Position numbers and translations under genes: made by a program. Below, piece after piece: positions 4,655 to 64,000 of a stretch of 64,000 bases of DNA. The notes under the pieces were generated by a model. It saw nothing but the letters and a program-made list of their open reading frames with translations. It was not told the DNA's origin and did not search any database. Source of the stretch: Escherichia phage Av-05. The first letter of the stretch is position 1, and the number at the start of each line of letters is the position of its first letter. The stretch lies in the sequence record KM190144. One strand, given 5' to 3'.

Positions 4655-5725
4655 ATGGCTATACCAAGTATACCAATCGAGATTTGGGCAGCGGGAGATG
4701 TAATTCTCCCTAATACTCACGGGGAGAACAAAATAAGACCTATTGACGACCTTTGGTTAAAAGGTTGGGATATGGGAGAAAAACCAGCTTGTGAAGAGTT
4801 TAACTATGTTCTTCATATGATGACAAGTTGGATAAAATATGTTACAGGGGATCAAATTCCTGAATTAGATACAAGATTTTTAAGAAGAAGTGAAAATCTG
4901 TCTGATTTAGCGGATAAGGAAACATCCAGAGTCAACCTTGATGTGTGGAGCAGATCAGAGGCCGACAACCGTTACGTGAATGTAACGGGAGATACAATGA
5001 CAGGAGCTTTGTCATTGCCGAGATTGAATTTTCAACCTTCTGAGACAGATACTGCGTATATCACAACTACAAATCCGGCTTCTGACTGGACGTACTGGGA
5101 TTTTGTTCTTGGAGATAATCCAGGAACAGCAGGGACAAACGGTGTAGATTCTATACGTTTCCGATTCTCTCCTTCAGGTAACTCTGGGATGTTCACTATG
5201 ATGGAGCTTAATGCTATTAGCTCCTCAGCGGCTTTGTGTAAAGTAACAGGAAATGTTGTTGCCACAGGCACTGTACAAGGAACAAATGTTAATGGCACAA
5301 ATGCAACATTCACCACAACAAGAACATCCTCTTTGACGGCTACAGGGCAAATTCAAGGTCAAACTGTTGTAGCAACAAGCTCATTAACAACACCATATGC
5401 AAGGGTTAATGGGGAAGCGAATGTAAATTCACTGGTTGTAAATAATAACTCTGCAAGGGTTGCGGGGAGAAATATCGTAAGATCTGTTAATGGTGTAGGT
5501 GCTGACGGGAATGGTAATGTTAACTTACCAACAGGAAGTGTTCAGCAAATAAGACTTGGTAATCGTTTCTCTGCGGGGGTTGTTGAGTCTACGTTTTATC
5601 CTGGACATGTAATGACTGGCTGGGCATTTGGTAATAAAAAGGAATTGAGAGGTGGTACGTATTACACTGCTCCTTTGCAATATCTTGTGAATGGTCAATG
5701 GGTAACAGTAACAAATTTAAACTAA
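4655..5725 (+). CDS. tail fibre protein
   Basis: GDTMTG motif typical of phage tail fibres; Thr/Asn/Gly-rich beta repeats; followed by Tfa-like gene. Confidence 0.55.
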   Translation: MAIPSIPIEIWAAGDVILPNTHGENKIRPIDDLWLKGWDMGEKPACEEFNYVLHMMTSWIKYVTGDQIPELDTRFLRRSENLSDLADKETSRVNLDVWSRSEADNRYVNVTGDTMTGALSLPRLNFQPSETDTAYITTTNPASDWTYWDFVLGDNPGTAGTNGVDSIRFRFSPSGNSGMFTMMELNAISSSAALCKVTGNVVATGTVQGTNVNGTNATFTTTRTSSLTATGQIQGQTVVATSSLTTPYARVNGEANVNSLVVNNNSARVAGRNIVRSVNGVGADGNGNVNLPTGSVQQIRLGNRFSAGVVESTFYPGHVMTGWAFGNKKELRGGTYYTAPLQYLVNGQWVTVTNLN

Positions 5726-20513: not shown

Positions 20514-20523
20514 TATTTTTACC

Positions 20524-21162
20524 TTACTCTGATATAGGGTCTGTTTTTGATCTTCTTTTCTGGACTTTCTTGGGTCTTCCTGTGATATGTGACCATGAGT
20601 ATCCATTATTTAAAGAAGATATTGTATTTCTGGAAACTCCGAATAGTTCCGCAATAGCTTTGTGTGTTATCCCACAATCAATAAGCCGTACAATCTCTAA
20701 AACTTTCTCCTTTGTAAGGACAGATAAATGATAATCATCACCAAATTTTTGGATTCTCCCCATACTATAAGCCACTGTATTGTTATGGCTATAGGTACAC
20801 CACTCAAGATTTTCAACTCTATTATTATGTCTGTTACCATCTATGTGGTTTATAATTGGAACTCCTAGCACAGTTTTTCTGCATTCTTTCTGCAATTCTG
20901 GAGAAGGAGGCTCTTTAAAAGCCTCCGCTACAAGTCTATGGACTGAAAAACTTTTCCCTGAATCTTTACCCCTTTTGTACAAGCACACGCTCGGATAGCA
21001 TTGTGGAGATAAATTTTCACTTTTAGTTTTTAAATATTTCCACATTCCTGATTTAAAAGATCTTACATTTCCATAATTACTTACTTGATAATCAGGATAC
21101 CCTACAATATCCTTCCAAATTTCCTCTACTTCATCAGTGGGAATCTGCCCATGTGTATCCAC
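20524..21162 (-). CDS. HNH homing endonuclease, free-standing
   Basis: YQVSNYGNVRS (NUMOD4-like) and INHIDGNRHNNRVENLEW... (HNH) motifs; overlaps 3' end of polymerase exon 3. Confidence 0.65.
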   Translation of the reverse strand: MDTHGQIPTDEVEEIWKDIVGYPDYQVSNYGNVRSFKSGMWKYLKTKSENLSPQCYPSVCLYKRGKDSGKSFSVHRLVAEAFKEPPSPELQKECRKTVLGVPIINHIDGNRHNNRVENLEWCTYSHNNTVAYSMGRIQKFGDDYHLSVLTKEKVLEIVRLIDCGITHKAIAELFGVSRNTISSLNNGYSWSHITGRPKKVQKRRSKTDPISE

Positions 21163-21433
21163 AAAGATATTCTCCTGTAATTAAAACGGGAAGCCCCATT
21201 ATCTTAGACGCTTTTTCTACACATTTTGTTGCAAGCTCTCCTACTGGGCAATGCAGTATCCTGTATTTCCCATACACATCAGGTTCAACAATAACTTTAC
21301 CTGCTTTCACATAATGTCCGTCGAAACGATGGCCTTTTTCAAGCATCATATCTACATAGCTTTGTGCAGCCTCTAAGTTAGAATGCTCCGTTATTGATTT
21401 AAATCTTTCCGGTACTTGTACCTGTATCTCATC
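21134..21433 (-). CDS. DNA polymerase, family A (T7 gp5-like), exon 3 of 3
   Basis: starts DEIQV (motif C HDE after splicing to ...YYH); C-terminus resembles T7 gp5 end. Confidence 0.6.
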   Translation of the reverse strand, partial: DEIQVQVPERFKSITEHSNLEAAQSYVDMMLEKGHRFDGHYVKAGKVIVEPDVYGKYRILHCPVGELATKCVEKASKIMGLPVLITGEYLCGYTWADSH

Positions 21434-22276
21434 CACTAGTTCAAGGAGTTCGCTACTCTCCCCCGCACCGTTACGTGCATAGCCACAAGATTTCTCCTGT
21501 GGGTCAGACTATATCATAACCCTTTTTCAAGGGTTCCTCCCGTTTGGACCGCGCTTGCTGGCCTACTCTACTCGCTTCTTCACATCAGATGAAGCTGATG
21601 CTATGCTTTCGATAGTCGTTGAACGTCACTTACCAAGTATAGTCTTTAGAGATATGCACCCACAATCTCCGTTGTTTAATTCCTTTTACGGATGGGTAGG
21701 GGTATCCGAGATCTCTAATCTCGCATTGCCTTAGCCCTGACTGTAGCAATTCACAAATCTCTCTCACATCTTTTTCTGTGAGAATGGCATTCGCATTGTT
21801 TTCACCAATAGGTATAACACGTAATCCTGTATCGTAAGCATGTTTTATATTGCTGCCATGTGTCCCCCACTCAAGATTCCACGCTGCGTTATTAAGTTTG
21901 TTTCCATCTTTATGATTAACGCTGGTGAATCTTTCTGGATCTGGATTAGGCACAAAACATTCTGCCACCATCCGATGTATGGCTTTCGTACAGGACTTAC
22001 CGTCTATCCTTATAATTGTACACAGATATCCCCTCCCATTATCAAATACCTGCAAGGGAAGTTTATCTCTTTTTGAAAGAGGCGTGGAACCATCTTCAAA
22101 AACTGTATACCCATGGTAATCTTTTGCTTTTACCATTTTACTATACCTCTTTAAGTTTTCGCTGCGGATTGGCATATTGTCCTTATAACACAATACATTA
22201 TAAGAATCAACTTAGCTTTCCCGACAATTAGAGAGGTTTTCGACATGCATTACTGCATGAAGCCACAATGTTATTT
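21434..22276 (-). mobile_element. group I intron 2 in DNA polymerase gene
   Basis: on sense strand: starts right after exon T, in-frame stop, P-like aattgtcgggaaa, Q-like caatccgcagcg, R-like cgttcaacgactatcg, S-like gatatagtctga, ends in G; boundaries within a few nt. Confidence 0.6.
21630..22136 (-). CDS. intron-encoded HNH homing endonuclease
   Basis: HKDGNKLNNAAWNLEWGTHGSN HNH motif; start at ATG preceded by AAGAGG. Confidence 0.6.
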   Translation of the reverse strand: MVKAKDYHGYTVFEDGSTPLSKRDKLPLQVFDNGRGYLCTIIRIDGKSCTKAIHRMVAECFVPNPDPERFTSVNHKDGNKLNNAAWNLEWGTHGSNIKHAYDTGLRVIPIGENNANAILTEKDVREICELLQSGLRQCEIRDLGYPYPSVKGIKQRRLWVHISKDYTW

Positions 22277-22609
22277 ATGGTAGTAGATAACCCTTCTGAC
22301 ACCCTGGTCGTACCATCCCCGTTTCACCAATTCCCAATGGAACAGGACTCCCATGAGGTCAAACAATGAAGCACCACCGTTTTGTTGGTAAGCATTCAGC
22401 AGAGAATGTTTAGAACGAGTCCAAATTTTACGCCCATCCATACCTGGAATATAGCGTCTCCCATTTGCCTCCCAGAATTTTTCTAACCACTCCCTACGCA
22501 TTTTCAACCCGAAGTTACTATCCCAGAATGCGTCTATTACAGCCTGTGCTCTATTAAGGGGGATACCCAGCATTGCGGCTATCTTAGGAGCTTGTGCTCC
22601 ATACATGAT
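22277..22609 (-). CDS. DNA polymerase, family A, exon 2 of 3
   Basis: IMYGAQ... and GMDGRKIWTRSKHSLLNAYQQNGGASLF align with T7 gp5 motif B region and downstream. Confidence 0.6.
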
Positions 22610-23343
22610 CATATTGTTCAACATGGCTCGCTACACCATGCCCGTCCTTTTAGGAACTGCTACATATTTCTATGCAGATCAGACTATATCTTCATCCTTT
22701 TCAGGATGCCCACCGCTTCGGCAGTCTGAAAGACTGGAGGTTTCCCTCACCGCTTGGCCCTACGCCTTTCGGCTAGTCGTTGAAGTTTCGAATGCTTCCC
22801 AACATTTATGTTCTATTTGATGGCATTTTTTACAAAGTAATTCAAAATTACTTATTTCGTTATTCGTCCTGTCATGGTCAATATGATGAACGCACCATTC
22901 ATCTTTACCTGCATAAAGAAGATCTTTATTACATCTATTACAGTATCTTCTCTGTTCCTTTATGACAGGGGATAACTTACGAAACATCGATATGCCATTT
23001 TTATAAAATTTGGACAATTTCCCACGAGGCTGCCCACCACCTTTTCCTATGCCAACTCTGTCAAGCCTATTTTCTCTTTCGGCCTTTCTGCGTCTATATT
23101 CTCTGGTTTTTATCTTTGAATATTCTCTTCTACAACCTTCAGAGAGACATACTTTTTGATTTTTACCAGTTTTAACACATTGTTCACCGCAGATTATACA
23201 ACAAAATGTGCCCATATTCTCCCTCCTTTTGTAAGAGGGAAGCATTCGCTTACCTGCTGATTATCTTCGACATAACTCGGTCAGATTTCCCAGCAATTCA
23301 ATGGGTGCACCTTACAAATTACTTTGTAAGGGGGCTATCATTA
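22610..23343 (-). mobile_element. group I intron 1 in DNA polymerase gene
   Basis: sense strand begins taa after exon ...ITYG; P-like aattgctgggaaa, Q-like aatcagcagg, R-like cttcaacgactagcc, S-like aagatatagtctga; boundaries within a few nt. Confidence 0.6.
22760..23215 (-). CDS. intron-encoded HNH homing endonuclease
   Basis: Cys-rich N-terminus, CVHHIDHDRTNNEISNFELLCKKCHQIEH HNH motif; ATG with AAAAGGAGGG SD. Confidence 0.65.
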   Translation of the reverse strand: MGTFCCIICGEQCVKTGKNQKVCLSEGCRREYSKIKTREYRRRKAERENRLDRVGIGKGGGQPRGKLSKFYKNGISMFRKLSPVIKEQRRYCNRCNKDLLYAGKDEWCVHHIDHDRTNNEISNFELLCKKCHQIEHKCWEAFETSTTSRKA

Positions 23344-25380
23344 ACCATACGTAATCCCCTTTCCTCCAGAGCGTGTTACCTCCTTTCCTGCTGCTATTGT
23401 GTATGCTCTTGCGTTTCGTTCATGGGCATCCTCTTCCATCATGATACGTAAATACTCACCACCATCAAACTCAAAAGCCCCTGCTGCAGCAATCATACCT
23501 TCTAAGTTAGACCCGTCACAACCCATCAGGTAGTAGCCTTCAGGGACTGTCCAAAGACCCCGCATTTCTTTTCCCAACAAAACCTTCGGATCAGGCTTGG
23601 GCATGTTTGCGCAAACAGTGTGCTTGCACCTGCCCGTGTTAGTGATTCCAGAAAAACGTGCTGGAAGTTTTCCGTCAATGTCTAAACGAGGGTGATTTAA
23701 TAACCCTGTATCCGTCTTGTCCTCATCCATTGGGTCTAAAACAGATCGCCTGTTACGAAGTGATAACCACTTAACAATCTGTTTTGCCATATGCACATCA
23801 ATTTTCTCCAGATTTGGACACAGATGCCCAAAATTATCTTTTAGTTGAGGAGATGTCGGTAACTGGCGTGCCTTACGCCGAAATTTCTTAAATATCTCTG
23901 AATAACCTCTTTCAGATGCATGTCGATGGTCAAACTTACGCTCTGAAATGTTGAATTTCTCATCTGAATCATTAAGGTAGTCAAGAATAAGAGATTTATA
24001 CTCAGACTCAGCCAACTCTTCTATGTACTTCTTAACTAGTACATCAATTTCAGAATCTTCTCTGGCCTTTTTAAATTGATCCTTCGTAACGTCCTTTACA
24101 CGCCACAGTGTAGGTTTCCAACCAGCATCTTTGATCAGATATTTTTTAATGTCATCTTGATTGGAGATTTTCATTGGAACCATTAAATCTGGCATTTTTC
24201 TGTTTCGAAGGTCTTCTTTAGCCTTCTCTAGAAGATCCGGCGGCAAAGGTTCGAGTGTGTTCTCTTTGGTTCGCTGGGAACGAATGAAATTACCGTATAA
24301 AGCCGGATCTTCAATGCCATTCTGGATGCAATATCTCTCCCCTGCTGCACTTACATCCCCATTACTCTTAAAAGCTGTTTTTGGTGGGGCTTTAAACTCT
24401 AGAGCTTCTCTGTTAACAGGATAACCAAGTTTATATTCCAACCAATTCCACCCATGATAAGATATATTACCCGCTGTGTCAAAAGGGTTAGCTGGGAATT
24501 TTGGTTGTTGGGATTTCGTCATCTCTTTTTTTGGAAGAAGTGGTTCTACCTCTTCTTCAATCTCCCGCATCATCTTATCTATGCGGTCTCTTAATTTTTC
24601 TGCCTCCTCTCGATTAAAGTATACACCCTGTATTTCTTGCTCTATCATCAAATAGTCTGTGAGCATTCTCCTACGTAATGCATTTTTCCAATTAATCTGG
24701 TGCATCCCGTGAGGTTTATCAGCATACATGAACTGCTTGTCATCAGGCCATCGCGTACCATTTGACTCGTCAATAAGAGCTTTCCACACAAGTTCGTTAA
24801 TGATAACGTCTTCCCACACACGGTTTACATATTCCCACAATGGTTGATTACGCCAATCATCAATCTGTACTTTCTTGTTTGCCACACGATAACCCCATGC
24901 CAATAAGCCGTGTGGCCCAACCCTATCACGTTTTCCTGTTACAGGGTTTAATACAGAGTCTGGGCAGCCATTAGGCAATGGGCGATCTGGGTAAAGAACA
25001 CGACTCATTGAAAGAGTGTCGTAAAGATTTACCTGTTTATTACCTATCGTCCCCATACATTTTGGGTCTTTGAACATATCATATTCAATCCCAGAAAGTT
25101 TTTTCCACAGACGTAAATCATAGCCAAACAGGTTATGTATTGCTATCCCTCTTGGTTCGGTCTGTAACCAAGAGTAAAAATCATCATAAGAAAGGATTCG
25201 TAAATTAACACCTTCTTTGCTGCGTGCAAAATTAACTGCACTCTGGTATTCCTTGTGAGCAGGATCGAGAAACAACACCCAGTTATTTACAGCATATTCT
25301 TTAAAAAGTGTGCAGTGATATTTAGTTGCCTCTTCTAATAATCCGTCAGCCTCTGTATCGGCTAAAAAAAGTCCTTTCAT
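23344..25380 (-). CDS. DNA polymerase, family A, exon 1 of 3 (3'-5' exonuclease plus N-terminal polymerase part)
   Basis: MKGLFLADTEADGLLEEATKYHC resembles T7 gp5 N-terminus (exo motif I); ends KGITYG at motif B; start at ATG with TAGGAGGAG SD. Confidence 0.65.
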
Positions 25381-62564: not shown

Positions 62565-63350
62565 TTATATTCTTTTATACAAGGTAGGAGCTACAATTTT
62601 TGGAATAACAACAGGTTTGACTATTTCTTCTTTTTCAAGATAATTTATCCCAGAAGAAATGGCGTCGACCCAATCGTCTTTTCTTGTCGTCGTACTCCTT
62701 TCCCCATTGAACTTTTCAAGCTCTGTCATAAGGGCTTCATAAGTTTTAGGATCAAAACTATCACGAACTATTCTCACCATACCTGCTTGAGCAAGTTTTG
62801 CAAACGGTGTGAATCGTGTTAATTTTGATTTATTGCTTGGTGTAGGATCTTTTTCTACTGTAAACCCTTCCGCTATTAGTTCACGGGAGCTTGTTAAAAA
62901 TTCACTTATTCCTGCTTGTCCTGGGTCAACACTGAAAATTATGGTGACATCATCACCATCAAAATAAGCCTGTTTCTTAATGATAACATCACGTTCCCCA
63001 GCTTTTTTACAGAATCTTCCCTGCGTTTGAGTCGAATATCTACCATCATCAAAAAATTCAGGACAATAATCACCAGACAAGTAGTAAAAACCATCATTGT
63101 CTTTACTTACCTTAACAGATGCTGTAAAGTCAGGATATCTGTTTCCAGATGTTCTTTCTGTACCTGCTTTATCATACGGACGAACAGATACAACACCGAG
63201 AGGTAAGCAGGGAACCTCTTTTAAATAAGATCTCTGGAAATAGTTTGCCCCTTCAGGTCTTGCATTCCAGTTCCCATGCAACAACTGGGCTTTTTCTACC
63301 TCTGGAAGACCTTCAAGGAATGCTAGATAATCTGGGTTATTCTCCAGCAT
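62565..63350 (-). CDS. terminase large subunit, nuclease-domain portion (N-terminal ATPase portion not contiguous)
   Basis: RNase H-like motifs incl. ...RKDDWVDAISSG...; no Walker A/B; reading frame open only to 63374. Confidence 0.55.
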   Translation of the reverse strand: MLENNPDYLAFLEGLPEVEKAQLLHGNWNARPEGANYFQRSYLKEVPCLPLGVVSVRPYDKAGTERTSGNRYPDFTASVKVSKDNDGFYYLSGDYCPEFFDDGRYSTQTQGRFCKKAGERDVIIKKQAYFDGDDVTIIFSVDPGQAGISEFLTSSRELIAEGFTVEKDPTPSNKSKLTRFTPFAKLAQAGMVRIVRDSFDPKTYEALMTELEKFNGERSTTTRKDDWVDAISSGINYLEKEEIVKPVVIPKIVAPTLYKRI

Positions 63351-63398
63351 GGGAGGATTATCGAATCCTTGTATTCAAGGTTGGACGCAACGCCAACC

Positions 63399-63450
63399 CC
63401 CGCACCGCTACGTGCTGCTGCATGTCACCAGCAGCACGTAGTGGTGCGGG
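63399..63450. repeat. 22-bp palindrome with 8-nt loop (one G-T pair)
   Basis: CCCGCACCGCTACGTGCTGCTG / CAGCAGCACGTAGTGGTGCGGG; each arm continues into sequence resembling the 3' end of pol intron 2. Confidence 0.8.
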
Positions 63451-63864
63451 ATAAGAGTAGCGATCTTATCTGAACAAAAAACGACACAATTCACATGGTC
63501 ACAGATAGATTATCTGATATCTCGTCTACGTTCAAACTCTAAATATCCGAGCAGGATGGTTATTTCTTGTAACCCTGATCCAGATCATAAGATCAAGGAG
63601 TTGATTTCTTGGTATTTAGATGATGAGGGATATCCTATACCTGAACGCGATGGGGTGATTAGATGGTTTATAAGACGTGACGGGGAGTTTATCTGGGGTG
63701 AATCAGAGCAAGAATTAATTGAAAAGTATTGGGATGGCAAGGATGAGAAAAGAAAGCCTAAACCACTTTCATTTTCCTTCATTTCCGCAACCATTAAAAG
63801 AATAGTGGCTTCATGCAGTAATGCATGTCGAATAACTTCGTTAATTGCTGGAAACTCTCAATAA
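63442..63864 (+). other. open frame on opposite strand with possible terminase ATPase motif-III-like segment
   Basis: frame open 63442-63864; ...SRMVISCNPDPDH... loosely resembles terminase ATPase motif III; ends with TAA directly before intron-like core. Confidence 0.3.
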
Positions 63865-64000
63865 GAGACAATCAGCAGCGAAGCGTCTATTGACGAACGT
63901 TCAACGACTATCCCGTAAGGGAGTAGAGCGCAAGCTAATGGCGTTCGAAAAGCGAAGCACCCATTATGTGTGGGTGGTGATATAGTCTACTCTGCATGGT
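63865..64000 (+). mobile_element. group I intron-like core on + strand, truncated by window end
   Basis: Q-like caatcagcagcg, R-like cgttcaacgactatcc, S-like gatatagtctac in plus orientation, near-identical to pol intron elements. Confidence 0.5.

Follow-up and report, generated by a model that had tools for sequence, protein, structure and literature searches.

Two group I introns and three HNH endonuclease genes at the DNA polymerase locus of Escherichia phage Av-05

How does Escherichia phage Av-05 obtain its DNA polymerase from a gene that is interrupted twice, each time within a catalytic motif? The gene lies in the 64,000-nucleotide stretch of sequence record KM190144 analysed here (the window; features are on its minus strand unless another strand is given), which from base 1 onwards is colinear with, and about 97% identical to, the genomes of the rV5-like Escherichia phages vB_EcoM_TH18 and 18-1-2 (Vequintavirinae). 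An earlier reading of the letters alone (the sequence-only reading) had proposed a family A polymerase split into three exons by two group I introns. Exon 1 (25380..23344, 679 amino acids) encodes the exonuclease domain and the thumb, as well as motif A and the N-terminal half of motif B, and ends with ...RSGGKGITYG, its last codon being GGT; its start at 25380 is consistent with the annotations of TH18 and of Klebsiella phage NDO71. Exon 2 (22609..22277, 111 amino acids) runs from IMYGAQ to VIYYH, covering the rest of motif B and everything up to the motif C His, and exon 3 (21433..21134, 99 amino acids and the stop codon) from DEIQV to GYTWADSH. These coordinates and end residues, as proposed, were all correct when checked on the sequence. 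The IA2-like intron 1 (23343..22610, 734 nucleotides) lies within motif B, after the residue that matches G527 of phage T7, and the IA2-like intron 2 (22276..21434, 843 nucleotides) between the His and the Asp of motif C. The insertion site of intron 2 corresponds to H653/D654 of T7 and, via the T7 alignment, to positions 881/882 of Escherichia coli Pol I.

Joining the three exons gives a product of 889 amino acids, which was aligned to T7 gp5 residues 470-660 without a gap at either junction (E 8e-18). Junction 1 lies within motif B (RSGGKGITYG/IMYGAQ, compared with RDNAKTFIYG/FLYGAG in T7) and junction 2 separates the motif C His from the catalytic Asp that follows it (VIYYH/DEIQV, compared with WVH/DEIQV), so that the alignment bears out the proposal that the exons end at motifs conserved in T7 gp5. 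The polymerase motifs are intact by the same comparison: motif A (the D of GCDGSNLE matches T7 D475), motif B (R-x3-K-x3-Y-G-x2-Y-G) and motif C (HDE). The protein passes the Pfam DNA_pol_A cutoff only when spliced (39.9 bits for the joined protein, cutoff 34.3), and exon 1 by itself matched no Pfam family. Exon 1 is 99% identical to its counterpart in TH18 and 63% identical to exon 1 of Pectobacterium phage vB_PatM_CB7 (CB7). These results support the view that the spliced gene would encode a single T7-type family A DNA polymerase of 889 amino acids with motifs B and C restored.

Alleles that lack the inserts were found in related phages. The polymerase gene of phage 4MG is uninterrupted: a single high-scoring segment pair covers residues 1-889, and both inserts are exactly absent. 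NDO71 is without the bases that correspond to 22276..21434 of the window, to the base, its own coordinates being continuous from 5401 to 5402, and insert 1 is absent from rV5-type phages and from Salmonella phage PVP-SE1. The boundaries of the inserts agree exactly with those of the intron-free alleles. Position -1, the last exon base before the insert, is T (U in the RNA) in all 12 intron-plus junctions examined (five at site 1, seven at site 2), which is what the U.G pair of P1 calls for; a synonymous G or C occupies this position in five of seven intron-minus junctions. As had been claimed, each insert starts directly behind an exon T with an in-frame stop and finishes with G: insert 1 opens with TAA TGA TAG and insert 2 with AAA TAA.

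The inserts were compared with the Rfam model of group I introns (Intron_gpI, RF00028), whose curated gathering score is 50 bits. In E-value mode intron 1 matched with 47.5 bits (E 4.5e-10), only its 3' half being correctly aligned, and its NDO71 ortholog scored 42 bits over the whole intron. Intron 2 gave split matches of 41.1 bits (E 3.9e-08) and 24.5 bits, because an open reading frame (ORF) of 530 nucleotides interrupts P6. Its ortholog in TH18, which occupies the same site, is ORF-less, 317 nucleotides long and 90-97% identical in the core, matched the full model with 91.2 bits (E 1e-22). For intron 1, no ORF-less copy was found that would allow an equally clean Rfam test, as all full-core copies were in two pieces with the ORF present. 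The Rfam comparison supports the group I proposal by E-value-mode matches in both inserts and by the TH18 ortholog of intron 2, which scores above 50 bits; the window copies themselves stay below 50 bits.

Helices P1 to P9.2 were placed by hand on both introns, and all core helices pair in both window copies. The P, Q, R and S elements announced by the sequence-only reading are present in both: AATTGCTGGGAAA, AATCAGCAGG, TTCAACGACTA and AAGATATAGTCT in intron 1, and AATTGTCGGGAAA, AATCCGCAGC, TTCAACGACTA and ATGATATAGTCT in intron 2. In both introns P2, P8 and P9 are GNRA-capped, P7.1 and P7.2 helices are present and the last base is G; every copy of either intron has the U.G pair that closes P1 next to the 5' splice site. 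P1 of intron 1 pairs GGU/U with AGCC (the slash marks the splice site), and its P10 pairs AUCAU of the 3' exon with AUGAU in the P1 loop, the intron ending ...AUAUG. In intron 2, P1 pairs CCAU/AA with UUGUGG and P10 pairs GAUG with CAUU, and the intron ends ...UAGUG. The extra helices that separate P7 from P3', P7.1 and P7.2, resemble those of subgroup IA2, to which both introns probably belong.

Each intron has an HNH ORF in its P6 region, HNH-1 (23215..22760, 151 amino acids) in the P6a loop of intron 1 and HNH-2 (22136..21630, 168 amino acids) in the P6 loop of intron 2. The loop with HNH-1 is closed by a long-range P6a stem of 11 base pairs (bp), with its 5' strand at 23248..23238 (CGAAUGCUUCC) and its partner at 22799..22789 (GGAAGCAUUCG); two double compensatory changes in this stem distinguish the window copy from NDO71 and CB7. 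The 3' end of the HNH-1 ORF traverses P6a', J6/7, P7 and P7.1. Over its full length intron 1 is 68% identical to intron 1 of CB7, the splicing of which has been shown experimentally, and in its 3' core it shares 88-90% of 50 nucleotides with the nrdB introns of T-even phages. An extra 28 nucleotides are inserted in P7.2 of intron 1 (22749-22722) as two small hairpins, GAGG-GAAA-CCUC and CAGUCU-UUC-AGACUG; this insertion is found in the window and in TH18, and is absent from the NDO71, CB7 and SSE121 copies.

Covariation was analysed for both introns, on ORF-trimmed alignments in the case of intron 2, and the double-change counts are the sturdier measure. For intron 2 (nine copies from five genera), 98.4% of the cells were paired, compared with 35-42% when the partners were slid; 27 of 63 pairs were double-changed, compared with 0-6 when slid, and the changes include both helices of the pseudoknot, P3 and P7. 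The P7.2 helix of intron 2 (4 + 2 bp) has three compensatory pairs. Not one of 500 shuffles reached the observed cells paired, the compensatory counts or the covariation score. For intron 1 (five copies), 95.8% of the cells were paired and 16 of 77 pairs were compensatory, P3 included, with P7 invariant; its P7.1 is GCC-GAAA-GGC, with a compensatory U-A pair in NDO71 and CB7. A further measure, the number of further pair types, did not differ from the shuffles for either intron.

Taken together, the covariance model, the splice-site pairings, the covariation, the exact intron-free alleles and the restored motifs support the identification of both inserts as group I introns, which is what the sequence-only reading had claimed. 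From these features we infer that the polymerase gene would be spliced in Av-05. It is very probable, in our view, that one pre-mRNA with two self-splicing IA2 introns yields the 889-residue polymerase, and that the two intron HNH genes and the free-standing gene HNH-3 behind the polymerase are homing elements. The gene would be transcribed as one pre-mRNA that carries both introns, each of which would fold into a P1-P9 ribozyme core with its HNH ORF looped out of P6. In the first step, guanosine would attack behind the exon U that is paired with G in P1; in the second, the exons would be ligated behind the terminal G, guided by P10. HNH-1 and HNH-2 would be translated from their own ribosome-binding sites, that of HNH-1 being partly hidden in a predicted hairpin. 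They would presumably nick or cut the intron-free alleles of co-infecting relatives, and recombinational repair would then copy the intron or the ORF; HNH-3 would likewise rely on break and repair for its spread, with no intron involved.

Several observations weigh against this reading. At the Rfam gathering threshold the window gives no match within either insert, because the ORFs split the intron cores. Since the window copies served to derive the structures, the percentage of cells paired is inflated, the double-change count being unaffected, and the covariation set of intron 1 is small (five sequences, two of them nearly identical). P1 of intron 1 has just 4 bp. HNH-1 stays below the Pfam cutoffs (HNH_3 21.8 bits, HNH 20.3 bits), and it has no close relative of solved structure.

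The short P1 is also among the features expected if one or both introns were decaying relics that splice poorly or need a protein cofactor, the gene then being helper-dependent or partly disabled; the 28-nucleotide insertion in P7.2 of intron 1, absent from NDO71 and CB7, and the overlap of the HNH-1 ORF with P6a', P7 and P7.1 point the same way. However, a comparably short P1 is known from the td intron of T4, the window copies pair in all core helices, and the compensatory changes point to purifying selection on structure. The polymerase is essential, moreover, and this phage lineage has been isolated repeatedly. We therefore consider decay very improbable.

Still more improbable is that the inserts stay in the RNA and that the polymerase consists of three polypeptides that assemble after translation, as has been reported for genes split by HNH insertions, namely NrdA of phage Aeh1 and possibly CB7's nicotinamide phosphoribosyl transferase. 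In-frame start codons do lie just upstream of exon 2 (ATG 22624) and of exon 3 (GTG 21436), the GenBank annotators of TH18 used such starts, and one HNH-interrupted gene of CB7 did not splice (Buttimer et al., 2020; PMC7344957). On the other hand, no Shine-Dalgarno sequence precedes the pseudo-starts of exon 2 and exon 3, and one of the breaks would cut through the O-helix (motif B), while the other would part the motif C His from the catalytic Asp. Both inserts also have intact group I cores under covariation constraint, and the orthologous CB7 introns at the same sites do splice (PMC7344957). That the inserts are inteins or assembly artefacts has a negligible probability, as nothing beyond the presence of endonuclease ORFs within a host gene speaks for it, Rfam identifies RNA introns, independent genome records covering several genera contain these inserts too, and the stops at codon 1 of insert 1 and codon 2 of insert 2 leave an intein no continuous frame.

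If splicing is thus the most probable fate of the two inserts, the next question is what the endonuclease genes do at this locus. HNH-1 is a CxxC zinc-finger HNH protein with the motif CxxC...HH-x-DH-x-N...CxxCH. It is 97% identical to the corresponding ORF of TH18, 76.5% to NDO71_orf015 and 68% to CB7_52, which is annotated as HNH. HNH-2 is I-HmuI-like: it exceeds the Pfam HNH_3 cutoff (25.5 bits, cutoff 24.8), matches I-HmuI (PDB 1U3E) with E 6e-6, and is 72% identical to the intron ORF of phage APECc02. The sequence-only reading had assigned to each insert a different HNH ORF with its own Shine-Dalgarno sequence; HNH-1 and HNH-2 do belong to different HNH subfamilies, and only their likely true starts were refined, to ATG 23215 behind AAGGAGG for HNH-1 and to ATG 22136 behind AAAGAGG for HNH-2. 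The ORF lengths counted from these two codons agree with the annotated lengths in TH18 and APECc02.

A hairpin predicted just within P6a (23247-23213) pairs the Shine-Dalgarno sequence of HNH-1 (AAGGAGGG) with an upstream CCCUCUU, and equivalent Shine-Dalgarno hairpins are predicted in NDO71 and CB7. The predicted hairpin suggests that translation of the endonuclease may be restrained. A sequestered ribosome-binding site combined with a looped-out ORF resembles the regulation of I-TevI.

HNH-3 (21162..20524, 212 amino acids) is free-standing, starts with GTG and overlaps the 3' end of the polymerase gene by 29 nucleotides, in agreement with the third HNH gene that had been proposed there. It combines NUMOD4 (1e-10), HNH_3 (8e-8, 32.2 bits) and a helix-turn-helix (HTH_7, 2.5e-6) in Pfam, and matches I-HmuI (1U3E) with E 2e-11. 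HNH-2 and HNH-3 are paralogs (34% identity, E 5e-16), and the gene that follows the polymerase in NDO71 is 38% identical to HNH-3. With 14 related HNH proteins as queries, phmmer found no HNH genes other than these three in the 64 kb of the window, a search that left other endonuclease families unscanned; within this scope the proposed HNH hotspot at the polymerase gene stands.

We infer that HNH-1, HNH-2 and HNH-3 may act as homing endonucleases, by the family resemblances given above; site 1 of PVP-SE1 and site 2 of NDO71, which match the exon context of the intron-plus alleles, are candidate targets.

Downstream of HNH-3, an ORF at 20606-20142 is listed from ATG 20606 (MDTHGH...) and overlaps the 3' end of HNH-3 out of frame. 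Its TH18 homolog most likely starts with MRVKGTQ, which corresponds to an internal MKVKGTQ of the window ORF about 31 codons in, so the upstream extension of the 20606 ORF is probably not translated. The MDTHG N-terminus that this ORF shares with HNH-3 was considered as a target-site duplication and rejected, since the second copy is an out-of-frame overlap in the C-terminus of HNH-3 (...NNGYSWSHIT...).

Comparison across the Vequintavirinae shows which of these elements come and go. In TH18, intron 2 is without the HNH-2 ORF, 22157..21627 of the window being replaced by 17 nucleotides. TH18 also lacks the HNH-3 cassette (21135..20514, 622 nucleotides), which stands in place of a 48-nucleotide intergenic terminator region of TH18; the flanks are 96.5-97.4% identical by local blastn. 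Phage 18-1-2 likewise has neither the HNH-2 ORF nor the HNH-3 cassette. The two differences from TH18 are therefore recent gain or loss events. HNH-1 was present in every intron 1 copy seen, and the presence/absence evidence for mobility covers HNH-2 and HNH-3. It is possible, though we hold it to be unlikely, that the window phage compared with TH18 and 18-1-2 shows the movement of endonuclease genes caught in progress, apart from the movement of introns.

The introns at site 2 differ most in what they carry. They are ORF-less in rV5, HMD-6, TH18 and Vibrio phage K470, and HNH-bearing in APECc02, SSE121, CB7 and the window phage; that of PVP-SE1 (1513-2431 of its locus) bears a LAGLIDADG gene and has one mismatch in P7. 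A single site is therefore found in three endonuclease states across the subfamily: none, HNH and LAGLIDADG. Exchange between the two sites is also indicated. The module that extends from P5 to the ORF in the site 1 intron of SSE121 (locus 1510-2192) is 92% identical over 123 nucleotides to that of the site 2 intron of CB7 (25480-24794), and the encoded proteins share 55% of their amino acids, while the flanking intron cores stay site-specific. Judged by these identities, an ORF module has passed between the introns of the two sites.

If HNH-3 or its relatives were to cut at or near site 2, the locus would offer a natural enterobacterial example of 'collaborative homing', in which, as has been proposed, an ORF-less intron becomes mobile after being invaded by a free-standing endonuclease gene. 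The near-isogenic endonuclease-plus and endonuclease-minus phage pairs would be usable in co-infection work on homing and marker exclusion.

How much of this organization is new? In CB7 (Certrevirus, Vequintavirinae) the polymerase is encoded in three pieces, CB7_49, CB7_51 and CB7_53, which are separated by the HNH genes CB7_50 and CB7_52 (Buttimer et al., 2020; PMC7344957). Both polymerase introns of CB7 were found to be spliced by reverse transcription-PCR and Sanger sequencing, and the free-standing HNH genes CB7_48 and CB7_54 flank the polymerase (PMC7344957). CB7 belongs to the same subfamily as the window phage and has the same three-exon structure with the same two codon boundaries (...TYG/IMYGAQ and ...YYH/DE). 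Intron 1 and its HNH gene are orthologous in the two phages (68% in nucleotides, 68% in amino acids), the cores of intron 2 are homologous, and the I-HmuI-like free-standing CB7_48 lies directly downstream of the polymerase and is 38% identical to HNH-2 and HNH-3. In contrast, the ORF of CB7 intron 2 (CB7_50) is only 29% identical to HNH-2 (E about 1e-7), compared with 72% for the ORF of APECc02, a phage of the rV5 type. CB7 further differs by an HNH gene upstream of the polymerase, of which there is none in the window, by another host genus and by a polymerase that is about 63% identical. The two-intron arrangement had thus already been described in the Vequintavirinae and the Av-05 gene is a further, mis-annotated instance; what the sequence-only reading observed, and how it interpreted it, is supported, and its novelty is not, since the CB7 arrangement was published.

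More distant relatives share parts of the arrangement. Known introns of phage family A polymerase genes lie at positions 674, 676 and 881 in E. coli Pol I numbering (PMC3428280). The PhiI/W31 intron is at site 881, which is the site of intron 2; it is of subgroup IA2 with P7.1 and P7.2, has its HNH ORF in P6a and interrupts a T7-type polymerase. It differs in that the phages are Autographiviridae with a single intron, and the comparison was by published site number alone. The family A polymerase genes of SPO1 and SP82 also contain a group I intron with an HNH nicking endonuclease (I-HmuI, I-HmuII), but at site 674 in E. coli numbering and in phages of Gram-positive hosts, and HNH-3 of the window is free-standing rather than intron-encoded. 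The IA2 introns td, nrdB and sunY of T4-type phages have nearly identical core elements and an ORF looped from a peripheral stem, but interrupt other host genes, and the endonucleases of td and sunY are GIY-YIG enzymes. Gene 5 of the T7-like Yersinia phage Yepe2 has its motif B interrupted three codons upstream of site 1 (...RDNAKTF/IYGFLYGAG) by an intron with an Endo VII-like ORF; over 81 nucleotides, the 3' core of this intron and that of intron 1 are about 83% identical.

No new mechanism is revealed, as standard group I self-splicing and HNH homing would account for the locus, which is one more well-supported example of an essential phage gene at whose most conserved catalytic motifs group I introns and homing endonucleases cluster. 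The locus bears on annotation, too. In the closest GenBank records, TH18 and 18-1-2, the gene appears as two separate polymerases and hypothetical proteins with exon 3 omitted, where the correct product would be one enzyme of 889 amino acids. In the TH18 record (ON075799, 21354-25480) the introns were missed, exons 1 and 2 are separate coding sequences, each named 'DNA-directed DNA polymerase', and exon 3 is unannotated; the start of TH18 peg37, the gene downstream of the polymerase, is probably placed too far upstream, at a GTG within the polymerase 3' end. No publication on TH18 or 18-1-2 was found in the literature searched.

A third group I intron was observed away from the polymerase locus, in the gene for the large subunit of terminase (TerL) at 62565-64000. 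Its Rfam match (71.2 bits, 63785..64000, plus strand) runs off the end of the window, and the HNH ORF that TH18 has in this intron is missing. The orientation of the gene flips within the window: TerL exon 3 (63350..62565) and a tail of about 85 nucleotides of the intron, up to about 63434, are on the minus strand, and TerL exon 2 with the 5' part of the intron (63484..63879) and the 3' part of the intron (63899..64000) are on the plus strand. All three terminase exons of TH18 are on one strand. The flip is due either to an assembly that folded back on itself or to a genuine inversion, by which terL would be broken. At the junction lies a palindrome (63429-63450), which gives a spurious sub-threshold match to mir-2066 at 63397-63452.

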